A stretch of 40,833 nt of DNA, taken from IMG/VR virus record IMGVR_UViG_2534682161_000025; one strand, given 5' to 3'. This stretch comes from a virus (lineage: Duplodnaviria > Heunggongvirae > Uroviricota > Caudoviricetes). The notes under the pieces were generated by a model, which saw only the letters and a list, made by a program, of their open reading frames with translations, did no database searches and was not told where the DNA came from. The position numbers and the translations under genes are program-made. This document shows, one piece after another, positions 9,190 to 28,698 of the stretch (its first letter is position 1; each line of letters starts with the position of its first letter).

Positions 9190-9203
9190 TGTGACATGTC
9201 ACA
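9190..9203. repeat. Perfect 14-bp palindrome TGTGACATGTCACA (copy 1 of 3)
   Basis: Self-complementary; directly abuts the terminator hairpin. Confidence 0.8.
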
Positions 9204-9209
9204 CTCACG

Positions 9210-9350
9210 TTATGACAAGCCTATGTATCCTGCTACACCAGATAATATCAAAATAACTGCAACAGCAAATTCGCCATCGTCAATGATACATTTACGGTTC
9301 ATAACGCCAAGTGCAACAAGCGCAAACACAACAAGAATAAAAGCAATCAT
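9210..9350 (-). CDS. Small hydrophobic protein (46 aa), not in the ORF track
   Basis: ATG at 9350, 10 nt after the upstream gene stop; two hydrophobic segments (MIAFILVVFALVALGV...AVAVILILSGVAGYIGLS); sub-threshold length. Confidence 0.35.
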   Translation of the reverse strand: MIAFILVVFALVALGVMNRKCIIDDGEFAVAVILILSGVAGYIGLS

Positions 9351-9359
9351 TTCTCATCC

Positions 9360-11834
9360 TTATTGCGGAGTGACATCCTGTGGTCGCCACCAGTATGTCT
9401 GGTTAAACTCTTTCTTCGAACGTTGCTCCATTTTACGCAAATAGCCTGGTGAAAAATACTCCTGCATCTGGTTAAAGATCATGTGATCGAGAGCCGCCTT
9501 CAAGTACCAGAGATTCGCACCTGGCATCAGCCCCTTCCCCAGCTTAACCAGATCACCACCAGTCTGCTCATTCTTCCCTTCCACAGCATTTAACGGTATG
9601 CCCTGAGCAATCTTCACTACGTCATCAACCAGACCAGCTACCGGGCCAAGCATCGACGCCAGCGCGCCGCTTCCGTACCTAGTGTGATCTGACAATAAAA
9701 AGTCACCGTAAAGGCCAAGACCACCACCTTTCAGTAGAGCACCAAGCCAAAATTTAGCAGCATCTTCTCCTGTCATCTCGCGATGATTACGACCAGACGC
9801 AAGGTCGTTAAGTTGCTGAGACAAAGCGCCAAGAATGGTCGTGCTGGCAATAAACGTCGCAATATATGCCGCACGCCCACCAGCAGACGGCATACCCATA
9901 GCGCGTGACCAGTGACGCATAACCACCGAGATAGGGAACGATTTAAACAGGAAAACACTTCTCGTTAATTCACCTTTCCATGTTCCACGCTGAATACCAG
10001 AACCGGTTATCAGTTGCTCACGTGCTCCCGGTGTAATAACAGCCATATCAACTTCTTCAGTTACGGCACCGAGCAGTTTACGCATTGCCTCAAATTTCAC
10101 GCGTTCAGGCTCACCAAGATGTTTAACTGCTGAATCAGGGATACGCATAATGCTTTCCGGTGTCAGCATCGTATTATTACCGTTCCCCCAGTCCTCCTGT
10201 TGCGCCAGCTTCCATACGCTCCAGTCTGTGTCAGTAATCCCTTTGCTTTTCAGGATACGAAAATCAGAGTCATCGAGGCTACGAAGGTCTGGTGTCCGTG
10301 ACACTACTTCTCCCAGGCTTCCCATCATGGTTACGCCATAGGCGCGCTTGTGCGCATCTGACCATGCTGTAAGCCCACTGGCACGCATTACCGCCGTTGC
10401 AGCCCAACGAGACACTGACGGCCCCATATTATCCATCGCCCAGCGGTTAACGCTGCCAAGTAGAGATTCCATCGCCAGACCAGCGCGGCGCGCCCGCGCA
10501 AGCTCAGTACGGTTCGTTGGGTCCATAGCTTCAAGCTGGTTGCGGAATAACTGGTTCATTGGAAGGTTGGTCACCTTCGCAGACAGATACATGGTTCCAA
10601 GATCAGAGAACGATGACAGCAACGCGGATCCGAGTCTGCTGGCAACCAGCCAGTTGCGGATATTGTCAGACCATCGCGCGATGTGCGGATTTGCTACAGG
10701 CTGTGTCTTTCCGGAAATAAAGTTGTACAGATTCTCTGTGTTGTTCGCCAGCCGCTCGACTTTACCGGTTTTACTCGGGTTAGCTGTTGCCGTTTCTGCC
10801 TTCACCTGATCAAGAAGAGAGCGGAAAACATGATCGGGGTTTGGGCCATATGTTTCCACCAGTGCAATATCTTTACTGATACCTTCCAGGTGACCGACCA
10901 TGATTTCCCATAGAGAGCGATCGCCATAAAGTTGCTGATATTGCAGATAGGAATCTGCATCTTTGAAATGTATCTGTCGTGATGCATTACCACGGTTAGC
11001 ACGTGCGCCGGAAATTCGCATTCCGGTATCAGTAAGCTTATTCAGCCCACCAGTAGCGATCGTGTTATAAGCCTCTCCAAGAAATGCAGACAACTCGGCA
11101 TCGTTCATCAGTTGTCCATCGGCTCGGATATAATATTTGCGATCCAGCTTACCTATAACATCGCTAACCCACTTATCCTTTGATACCGCCCCAACCTTTT
11201 CCATAGAATGATGTTGAGGGATCCCCCAGTTTTCGAGATAGCCAATGTCCCCACCAGCATCATTAAACCGGCGGCGCAGCAGCTCTGTAACTTCTCTCCA
11301 CGCCTTAGCACCTTTTCTTGCTTTAGCATTGCCAGTATTTTGCCCCCGCATTTCATATACCAGGTCACGTACGCCCGCTTCATCTTCAAACAGACCAAAA
11401 AAGCGAGGATCAACTGCTTCGAATGCCTCCTGCAATTGACTCAATGCATAATCACGGGTGGCTTTTGTTCTGGATTCAACAGAGAGGAAATTAGATTTAC
11501 CGTCTGCATTAAAAGCTATAGTACGGTTAAGAGCGCCAAGTTTCCCATCAGCCCCTTGATAGCTATTGATAAATTTATCCAATCTCTGACGTGCAGCTAT
11601 AGTGAGAGCCACACGACGTTTCTTTAATGCCGCTTCTCGCTGTAATTCTTCAGATGCCAATTGTGCTGCACGATACAGCCGCTCTGACTCGGAAAGTTGT
11701 CGCCACGACATAGGGTCATCACGAGCAATGGAGCGCATATTGCGATAAATGCGGTCTTCAATGTTCTGTATTTCTCGCGCCGTTAACGTGCGCTGCGCCG
11801 CCTGCTGGACCGCTTGTATACATTCCTGTCTCAT
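9360..11834 (-). CDS. Large virion internal/ejection protein (824 aa)
   Basis: Position between internal-core-sized genes and tailspike; long mixed helical/Gly-rich sequence; function by synteny with T7-like internal core proteins. Confidence 0.65.
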   Translation of the reverse strand: MRQECIQAVQQAAQRTLTAREIQNIEDRIYRNMRSIARDDPMSWRQLSESERLYRAAQLASEELQREAALKKRRVALTIAARQRLDKFINSYQGADGKLGALNRTIAFNADGKSNFLSVESRTKATRDYALSQLQEAFEAVDPRFFGLFEDEAGVRDLVYEMRGQNTGNAKARKGAKAWREVTELLRRRFNDAGGDIGYLENWGIPQHHSMEKVGAVSKDKWVSDVIGKLDRKYYIRADGQLMNDAELSAFLGEAYNTIATGGLNKLTDTGMRISGARANRGNASRQIHFKDADSYLQYQQLYGDRSLWEIMVGHLEGISKDIALVETYGPNPDHVFRSLLDQVKAETATANPSKTGKVERLANNTENLYNFISGKTQPVANPHIARWSDNIRNWLVASRLGSALLSSFSDLGTMYLSAKVTNLPMNQLFRNQLEAMDPTNRTELARARRAGLAMESLLGSVNRWAMDNMGPSVSRWAATAVMRASGLTAWSDAHKRAYGVTMMGSLGEVVSRTPDLRSLDDSDFRILKSKGITDTDWSVWKLAQQEDWGNGNNTMLTPESIMRIPDSAVKHLGEPERVKFEAMRKLLGAVTEEVDMAVITPGAREQLITGSGIQRGTWKGELTRSVFLFKSFPISVVMRHWSRAMGMPSAGGRAAYIATFIASTTILGALSQQLNDLASGRNHREMTGEDAAKFWLGALLKGGGLGLYGDFLLSDHTRYGSGALASMLGPVAGLVDDVVKIAQGIPLNAVEGKNEQTGGDLVKLGKGLMPGANLWYLKAALDHMIFNQMQEYFSPGYLRKMEQRSKKEFNQTYWWRPQDVTPQ

Positions 11835-11839
11835 TTAAT

Positions 11840-27983: not shown

Positions 27984-28577
27984 TGATTACCATCCTGACG
28001 TTCTTTGAGTCGCTTCCTGGCTGCTGCTATGCGATCAGCAATTGTCACATTCACATTAACATCCAGACGTTCTTTGAACGCGTTGACATCAACATGCTTA
28101 CCAATCAGCTCAAGGTTCTTCACCTTGTCAGGCCATTTAATTTTTTTGAGGATTGTCTCTATCGAATCCTCGTTCATGTTCATGATGGTCGACGACAGAT
28201 CAAAGCCACTAAGCGTAGTGCGCCAGATTTTCGGCCACTCACGGATTGGTTTAAGGCTCCCATCGTCGTTGAGGATGTCGATCACGTCCATCTGGTCGAT
28301 CTCCACCAGGCGCATGAGAACGTAATCAGCACTGACGCGCATTCGTTTGTTGCGCTCCTCCATCAACTCGGCAATCCGTTTCTGAATGCGTTCATCGCGC
28401 ATCATGACACTGGCTTTAACTGCCGCTGTGTTTGGGGAGAATCCTGCGTTAATCGCTGCCTGAGTCTGGTTTTCAGGCGTTTTGATGTATGACTGGCAAT
28501 AAGCCTCCTGCATTGCTGTGAGCGGCTTAAATTGCGTTGATTTGCGTTTATAGGTTTTAGGTTCAGCAGGCATCATA
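27980..28577 (-). CDS. Terminase small subunit
   Basis: Start refined to ATGATG at 28577/28574 (track ORF extends through an upstream terminator); typical small-terminase helical N-terminal region. Confidence 0.65.
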
Positions 28578-28609
28578 ACCACCGTGGTAATAGTTACCGT
28601 TGTGGTAAT
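28577..28609. promoter_or_regulatory. Two dyad sites (TAACC-accgt-GGTAA and TTACC-gttgt-GGTAA) right upstream of terminase small
   Basis: Centres 18 bp apart; also readable as direct repeat ACTATTACCAC x2 on the minus strand; overlaps the start codon. Confidence 0.4.
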
Positions 28610-28620
28610 AGTACCATGCA

Positions 28621-28645
28621 AAATAAAGCCGCCATAGTTGGCGGC
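28621..28645 (-). terminator. Intrinsic terminator between early genes and terminase
   Basis: gccgcca-tagt-tggcggc hairpin followed on the minus strand by TTTATTT. Confidence 0.5.
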
Positions 28646-28686
28646 AGTATTCAAAATCCATCAAATTCATCATGCATAATCTACTC

Positions 28687-28698
28687 GTGACATGTCAC
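28687..28698. repeat. Perfect 12-bp palindrome GTGACATGTCAC (copy 3 of 3)
   Basis: Between the stop of the 115-aa Cys-cluster gene and the terminator upstream of terminase small. Confidence 0.8.

Follow-up and report, generated by a model that had tools for sequence, protein, structure and literature searches.

MatP organizes the Ter macrodomain of Escherichia coli, and its binding site, matS, is nearly identical to the element that concerns us here, a 12-bp palindrome, GTGACATGTCAC, which is present in three perfect copies in a 40,833-nt stretch of viral DNA (Caudoviricetes; IMG/VR record IMGVR_UViG_2534682161_000025), the whole of which we refer to as the window. The window is a prophage of the epsilon15/phiV10 type (Uetakevirus), and we favor, with moderate confidence, the reading that its three palindromes are duplex-DNA operators (YGTGAC-N2-GTCACR) of the phage's own protein, for which a ribbon-helix-helix (RHH) fold and a zinc domain are predicted. 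This protein, hereafter the regulator, is most likely encoded by the gene that closes the early-right operon (28695-29042, minus strand). The half-sites of matS (consensus GTGACATTGTCAC; PMC8669397) and of the phage palindrome are the same (GTGAC...GTCAC) and both elements are palindromic, such that the window site amounts to GTGACATTGTCAC minus one central base; further, the regulator is predicted to use an RHH domain that follows a basic helix, and its host range overlaps the MatP-bearing gamma-proteobacteria. The two systems differ, however, in the spacer, which is 2 bp in the phage 12-mer and 3 bp in the 13-bp matS (GTGACRNYGTCAC), and sites with the matS-type N3 spacing number 0-1 in 1.8 Mb of related loci. 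They also differ in architecture, as the regulator lacks the N-terminal four-helix bundle and C-terminal coiled coil of MatP and carries a four-cysteine domain instead, and in density, with 2-4 phage sites per 40 kb compared with 23 matS sites over 800 kb. Homology to MatP was considered and rejected, given a negative profile comparison (hhalign probability 0.3%) and undetectable sequence homology.

Small RHH regulators, including Arc and Mnt of P22, CopG, omega and the TacA/KacA antitoxins, share the beta-alpha-alpha fold that is the best structural match of the modeled regulator, and their operators are likewise short and symmetric, with several per replicon as in the plasmid global regulators. 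Whereas RHH operators lie over promoters, the phage sites lie at operon 3' ends or over stop codons, and the phage protein possesses an additional conserved basic N-terminal helix and a C-terminal zinc domain, and has no toxin partner. The arrangement also recalls Q of lambda and its qut/QBE site: the regulator gene closes the early genes and immediately precedes the late (lysis/packaging) ones, its DNA site adjoins the gene and is followed by a terminator, and a zinc-binding motif is present. Yet the regulator is unrelated to any Q family by sequence or by Pfam, NCBIfam or PDB search, the phage sites are several and dispersed rather than single, no convincing promoter with a pause element accompanies them, and N15/phiKO2 and the Pantoea myovirus AH07 carry a Q-like gene besides the regulator. 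A further comparison is with TraR of the F plasmid and phage TraR/DksA-like zinc-finger proteins: residues 50-109 of the regulator, which comprise a long helix and the pattern CxxCG..(I/L)P...C, can be aligned to nearly all of TraR, at borderline significance. The acidic N-terminal tip of TraR enters the secondary channel of RNA polymerase; the regulator has no such tip, as the aligned region starts at R50-A-P-Y and is preceded instead by the basic helix and RHH core, and its fourth cysteine is placed differently. Finally, the boundary sequences of the lambdoid phages Sf6 and HK620 (annotated bsq) are short conserved sequences at the junctions of exchangeable modules, and cassettes do abut the palindromes described here; the phage site is, by contrast, a strict 12-bp inverted repeat that phages of unrelated types have in common and that goes with a single protein family.

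The palindrome in the window and its close relatives

The initial annotation of this DNA had claimed that three perfect copies of the palindrome were unlikely to arise by chance, that each lay beside an intrinsic terminator in the same orientation to the terminated strand, and that together they bracketed the terminase genes and the end of the structural operon. GTGACATGTCAC indeed occurs exactly three times in the window (9191-9202, 26422-26433 and 28687-28698), as opposed to zero times in 100 dinucleotide-preserving shuffles, and no other palindrome of 10 or 12 bp is repeated there. Synteny with the phiV10 and epsilon15 annotations, by which the operon positions of the sites were assigned, likewise bears out the bracketing. 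The features at issue are as follows.

28687-28698: site A, GTGACATGTCAC, where the early-right operon ends; terS follows about 115 bp further on
28695-28697, minus strand: TGA stop codon of the gp49-like regulator gene, contained in site A
28695-29042, minus strand: gene for the presumed binding protein (the regulator), homologue of epsilon15 gp49 and PhiV10p55; phrog_536
28628-28645, minus strand: intrinsic terminator between site A and terS, 41 nt past site A
26508-28654, minus strand: terS-terL operon, bracketed by sites A and B, with a Terminase_2 domain in the terS open reading frame (ORF)
26438-26457, T-run on the plus strand: terminator hairpin between terL and the accessory gene, 4 nt past site B
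26422-26433: site B, GTGACATGTCAC, between the convergent terL (minus strand) and accessory gene (plus strand)
26046-26417, plus strand: accessory gene of the Phage_gp49_66 family, ending 4 nt before site B
9190-9203: site C, TGTGACATGTCACA, a 14-bp palindrome whose 12-bp core spans 9191-9202; it lies where the structural operon ends (3' side), directly against the terminator of that operon
9173-9190, minus strand: intrinsic terminator hairpin of the structural (head/tail) operon, followed by TTTTCTTT and abutting site C

Consensus scans for terminator-like hairpins with T-runs place one beside every copy, and each of the three consists of a GC-rich stem-loop followed by a T-run, as befits an intrinsic terminator. 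On the strand that bears the T-run, the palindrome lies 5' of the hairpin at all three sites, and to this extent the claim of equal orientation stands; relative to the late strand it fails at site B, where the T-run serves the plus-strand gene 26046-26417 and the minus-strand order is hairpin, then palindrome. The late genes of the window are on the minus strand. As repressor-type operators precede each late unit (see below), the palindromes mark the 3' ends of three consecutive units on the same strand. The window sites lie at operon 3' ends, and a single weak promoter-like match (9/12) overlaps site A. Site A of the window contains GTGACA-18-CATGAT, for which epsilon15 has GTGACA-17-TAAATT; both are weak, and their spacing differs. 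Neither inspection by eye nor a scan revealed a common promoter motif downstream of the three sites, and around the sites no pause element was identified, nor a convincing promoter carrying one.

Two further matches lie elsewhere in the window. A fourth GTGAC-N2-GTCAC sequence (GTGACCCGTCAC) lies at 2590-2601 inside the holin gene, against a chance expectation of ~0.04 per window, and is not conserved in phiV10 or epsilon15. A one-mismatch copy (GTGCCATGTCAC) at 23378-23389, inside a head gene, is probably a chance occurrence, as phiV10 retains it and epsilon15 does not.

Over ~20 kb, the window shares 97-98% identity with phiV10 and related phages of E. coli. Nucleotide identity is about 76-81% with epsilon15, a Salmonella phage, and Tyrion, an Enterobacter phage; these phages all belong to the genus Uetakevirus. 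Absence of the palindrome from close relatives, or its occurrence away from terminators, would have spoken against the initial annotation; we find the sites present and terminator-associated in phiV10, epsilon15, Tyrion and SPN1S. The exact 12-mer occupies all three syntenic positions in epsilon15, Tyrion and SPN1S, while phiV10 has two exact copies and a site A with one mismatch. When five Uetakevirus genomes are lined up on the palindrome, the 12-mer at sites B and C stands out as a perfectly conserved island between diverged flanks, and the stems of the neighboring hairpins are preserved through compensatory changes between phages. The site C hairpin is thus conserved in relatives with its sequence changed, and epsilon15, SPN1S and Tyrion also retain the terminator that separates site A from terS. 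In epsilon15, the equivalent of site C provides the TGA stop codon of gp18.

A wider survey took in 80 close relatives from IMG/VR, of which 79 could be assessed for site A and 77 for site B. An exact copy of site A overlaps the stop codon of the regulator homologue in 77 of the 79, and most of these relatives have a second copy 2.2-2.6 kb downstream of site A, with site B adjoining the end of terL in 51/77. Conserved placement holds across the four other complete Uetakevirus genomes compared, and gives way at site B, which is lost from about one third of the close relatives.

The motif and its companion gene in other phages

Homologues of the regulator (24-60% identity) are found in N15/phiKO2-like, P2-like, HK97-like and lambda-like phages of Enterobacterales, Vibrio, Aeromonas and Pseudoalteromonas, and nearly all of the loci that encode them carry YGTGAC-N2-GTCACR at, or just past, the gene's own stop codon, plus one to three more copies. 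Here the contexts of distant homologues were obtained by exact-protein look-ups, and site counts include related sequences rather than independent events. In phiKO2, N15 and 48 related loci, GTGACTGGTCAC lies over the stop codon and a second copy inside repA, often with a third, inverted copy 9-10 kb away; this phiKO2/N15-like set holds 113 sites in 946 kb, compared with 0.9 expected. The site overlaps the regulator stop in a Yersinia P2-like phage and falls within the last codons of the gene in AH07, which has one further copy. Vibrio HK97-like phages have three copies, one of them 19-34 nt before terS, and a Xenorhabdus prophage has two copies of the identical GTGACATGTCAC. A distance of 17-435 bp downstream of the gene is seen in prophages of Vibrio, Aeromonas and Pseudoalteromonas and in other lambda-like prophages, and in five lambda-like prophages (L146-L149 and L154) it lies 49-435 bp past the gene or over its stop codon. 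One of these, L148, has a site over the regulator stop and another over the terL stop, with a terminator 8 nt later; in L154, a site overlaps the stop codon of the gene directly upstream of terS. Sites thus recur directly upstream of terS, or at the terL stop with a terminator after, and adjoin terminators in two independent groups, the Uetakeviruses and L148. They also lie at times inside coding regions (repA, int and ydaT). P2 and Sf6, both of which lack the gene, have no site.

The Aeromonas P2-like and Pseudoalteromonas prophages share a common variant, GTGTCCGGTCAC, which occurs twice as a 12-mer in the Pseudoalteromonas prophage L143. Shortly past the regulator gene of two Aeromonas prophages (L142, 10655-10684; L153, 10361-10390), an inverted pair of GTGTCCGGTCAC copies, 6 nt apart, forms a hairpin with a 12-bp stem that is followed by ATTTCATT. 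A separate recurrence is that the TGA internal to the motif repeatedly serves as the stop codon of the preceding gene, be it the regulator, epsilon15 gp18, a terL or the gene before terS (L002, 19517; L148, 16525 and 10357; L154, 10901; L084, 7292; L085, 6324).

The form of the motif is strict in its spacing and lax at its center. Sites with N2 spacing number 14, 6, 107 and 130 in four sets of loci, and are alone in being enriched; other spacings (0, 1 and 3-7 bp) or an everted arrangement give 0-2 sites in the same sets. Among 25 sites from different lineages, 48 of the 50 symmetrized flanking positions hold a pyrimidine, which yields the consensus YGTGAC-NN-GTCACR, and the two central bases vary freely. 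This recurrence of half-sites and N2 spacing in the company of one gene, in about eight phage types without common flanking DNA, is hard to explain other than by a functional tie between protein and site, the simplest form of which would be that the protein binds the site. Besides the Uetakeviruses, at least seven kinds of temperate phage show this pairing.

In most cases, as in phiV10, epsilon15, Vibrio phages and lambda-like prophages, the regulator gene closes the early genes, and those for lysis or packaging come next. Its stop codon lies in site A in the frame GTG TGA CAT GTC AC, and its length is 112-115 residues; most homologues have 112, and the true start of the window gene is probably the GTG at 29033, which would give the same length. 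PHROGs labels phrog_536 merely a 'transcriptional regulator', and the sequence gave no match in Pfam, NCBIfam or the PDB. The family is a small one, with 198 representatives (50% identity level) in a set of 1.8 billion proteins, and is built of a near-invariant basic N-terminal motif (ERKxAQRxR), a strand-helix-helix core and a C-terminal CxxC...C...C cluster, with conserved cysteines at C82, C85, C93/94 and C102. In the predicted model these parts form an RHH fold, with the expected beta-alpha-alpha order, and a C-terminal four-cysteine domain; MatP is one of many RHH proteins that the model matches, and no oligomerization domain is evident beyond the RHH core. Used as a profile against the PDB, the family reaches F-plasmid TraR, almost the whole of which aligns to residues 50-109 (E 0.025; hhalign probability 50%), and YbiI (E 0.021), both at a borderline level.

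Proposed operators of the regulator and competing explanations

We propose that a dimer of the regulator would bind each site and, once bound, would act on RNA polymerase as it reaches the junctions between the early operon, terS-terL, the head-tail operon and the tailspike unit. Since each junction carries a terminator beside the site, the regulator would in this way set the amount of transcription that crosses from one unit to the next. A Q-like, site-dependent rise in read-through into the late genes is the sign of the effect that we favor, with a roadblock or insulator as the alternative sign of the same mechanism, and the marginally TraR-like C-terminal domain is a candidate for the contact with RNA polymerase. 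Such a function at operon junctions is plausible. Among the roles envisaged in the initial annotation, that of a site for a late regulator or antiterminator fits best, given the coupling to the last early gene, the predicted RHH/zinc protein, the Q-like position and the location of sites just before terminators at junctions; its antitermination component remains putative.

Several observations weigh against this proposal. The link between protein and site rests on co-occurrence, and natural genomes can do without individual sites: of the 77 close relatives, 26 have site B replaced or degenerate, one relative (L038) has deleted site A, another (L066) has the gene and neither site, and an Aeromonas schubertii prophage (L152) has the gene and no site within one mismatch. 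The sites of N15-like phages lie inside repA or just before the next ribosome-binding site, without adjoining terminators, and the late-strand order at site B, hairpin first and site second, is at odds with a simple scheme in which the protein is loaded before the terminator. Nor is read-through obviously needed, as each late unit has its own repressor-controlled operator. The similarity to TraR is weak, the Pfam domain zf-dskA_traR is absent from 62 family members, a similarity of the regulator to DksA was not found, and we know of no RHH protein that acts as an antiterminator.

A bolder extension, which we regard as unlikely, is that the gp49/PhiV10p55 family constitutes a new class of site-specific elongation regulator, in which an RHH dimer would recognize the matS-like duplex site at operon ends and a zinc domain would engage the polymerase. 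Its TraR-like zinc domain would switch the neighboring terminator on or off as polymerase arrives, making the protein an analogue of Q that is loaded from dispersed DNA sites instead of a promoter. The putative users of this class would be Uetakeviruses and the N15-like, P2-like and lambda-/HK97-like phages of MatP-bearing gamma-proteobacteria.

The initial annotation also raised the possibility of a module-boundary element that promotes recombination between phages. On such a reading, the palindromes would be short boundary sequences at module junctions, which would serve mainly as micro-homology or break points for cassette swapping, and would need no dedicated binding protein. The DNA around the sites is variable in a manner consistent with this: at least five different sequences start 1-3 nt past site A in close relatives, the opposite-strand accessory genes next to sites B and C differ from phage to phage, and the phage encodes RecET-type recombinases. 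Downstream of terL in L069 (~6870-6900), only the left half of site B is retained (GTGACAT joined to TTAAAAA), which looks like a recombination junction in the center of the palindrome. However, exchange driven by homology would have very little sequence to act on in 12 bp, the strict N2 spacing and variable center resemble protein recognition, and the half-sites and spacing go with the homologous gene in unrelated phages that lack common flanks, sometimes inside coding regions. Variable cassettes at all three sites and the half-palindrome junction thus lend this part of the annotation some substance, while the gene link across unrelated phages is left unexplained, and as a self-sufficient account it appears improbable. 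A boundary role is compatible with operators of the regulator, and may be a secondary consequence of a conserved operator beside variable DNA. The cassettes that begin 1-3 nt past site A in L015, L069, L079, L080 and L082 include a small ORF (MPKIRYDL...) and a LexA box with a umuD-like gene.

We attach a similarly low probability to a role in DNA packaging, in which a protein would bridge sites A and B and loop out terS-terL, for instance to present a pac region or to control terminase dosage, with site C as a third anchor. Sites A and B bracket the terminase genes in Uetakeviruses, and in most relatives the second copy lies 2.2-2.6 kb further downstream; the sites before terS in Vibrio phages and L154 and over the terL stop in L148 point the same way, and the fold matches of the regulator include, besides MatP, RHH proteins that bind plasmid centromeres. 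Against this, the sites of N15-like, P2-like and Xenorhabdus phages are far from the terminase genes, the relatives that lack site B have the same terminase as those that retain it, and beyond the RHH core no oligomerization domain is evident. A separate idea, that the palindrome is the genome end (cos), was discarded. The GenBank records of phiV10 (L001) and Tyrion (L140) are linearized inside site A, between GTGA and CATGTTAC and between GTGACA and TGTCAC, respectively; these cuts probably reflect the convention of closing a record after the last coding sequence, and the terminase is of the headful type by annotation.

Recognition of the sites by a host protein, most obviously MatP, whereby the phage would use the chromosome-organizing machinery of its host, is very improbable. 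The shared half-sites invite the comparison, yet the spacing is strictly N2, sites of matS spacing are virtually lacking from the related loci, and nothing would oblige a host-factor site to coincide, across unrelated phages, with the stop codon of one particular phage gene. The comparison of the family profile with that of MatP is, as noted, not significant, and the better structural model reduces MatP to one RHH match among many. Known host sites (CRP, TGTGA-N6-TCACA; SlmA, GTGAGTACTCAC; LexA; and matS) were rejected for mismatched spacing or center.

It is very improbable that the element acts instead as RNA, in the form of a GUGA-CAUG-UCAC mini-hairpin that lies in a 5' leader or at the 3' end of an mRNA and is recognized by a protein or modulates the folding of the terminator, processing or translation of the following gene, and the RNA processing signal suggested in the initial annotation finds no support. 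In its favor, the palindrome is 0-4 nt from the terminator stems at sites B and C, where predicted folds stack both hairpins, several relatives have a site 2-20 nt before the next start codon, and the inverted Aeromonas copies themselves form a terminator-like stem, but the mini-hairpin has a stem of just 4 bp and matches no Rfam family (an Rfam search of the window returned only a tRNA). A duplex-DNA site is favored because the half-sites are conserved rather than the pairing potential, with non-palindromic centers in many lineages, and because the motif occurs in both orientations, within coding regions and on the antisense strand of genes, in association with a protein of predicted DNA-binding RHH fold.

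Neighboring features and implications

Other elements of the window bear on how its late units may be controlled.

28576-28608: two immunity-repressor-type operators (TTACC-N5-GGTAA) in front of terS
8892-9167, plus strand: antirepressor-like gene with a LexA box upstream, its 3' end facing site C

TTACC-N5-GGTAA, a motif annotated as repressor operators in epsilon15, has 12 copies in the window (3177, 8819, 25429, 28576, 28594, 31618, 31680, 33650, 33987, 34035, 34747 and 34809), compared with 0.6 expected. As one or two copies precede each late unit (lysis, tailspike, portal unit and terS), with others in the immunity region, the late operons may be repressed directly in the lysogen. The palindrome was also considered as an operator of the epsilon15 repressor and rejected, those operators being another motif (ATTACC-N5-GGTAAT). 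At site C, the end of the head/tail operon lies opposite a convergent, LexA-controlled gene. A perfect LexA-type box (CTGTATAAACATACAG) at 8873-8888 is directly upstream of this 91-codon plus-strand gene (8892-9167; phrog_450), whose product has weak similarity to anti-repressors, which suggests that an SOS-controlled antirepressor faces site C. Upstream of the accessory gene near site B, and on the opposite strand to the late genes, a tRNA-Arg gene (anticodon TCT; 25766-25842, plus strand) overlaps a minus-strand ORF (25772-26023), annotated in phiV10 as hypothetical protein p04; this overlap casts some doubt on the ORF as a real gene.

There is precedent for RHH regulators that have palindromic operators. 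What is unusual here is the placement at stop codons and operon ends, the fused predicted zinc domain, the matS-like sequence and the wide distribution. In the literature that could be searched, no relevant paper contained the window 12-mer or any of six variants from related phages, and for SPC32H-type phages nothing useful on late regulation was found; this palindrome is also missing from the numerous binding sites and stem-loops marked in the epsilon15 record.

Late-gene control in podoviruses of the epsilon15/phiV10 type, which include O157 typing and reporter phages and common prophages of Salmonella and E. coli, is poorly understood. The present analysis gives a protein hitherto recorded as 'hypothetical' or as a 'transcriptional regulator' a candidate DNA target and a testable role, and provides three defined sites at which its effect could be measured. 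These sites coincide with hot spots for the exchange of accessory genes, among them antirepressors, a umuD-like cassette and a tRNA-linked cassette, and the near-identity to host matS raises the question of cross-talk with chromosome organization. More broadly, the pairing of protein and site in N15-, P2-, HK97- and lambda-like phages points to a regulatory module that is widespread and has so far gone undescribed.

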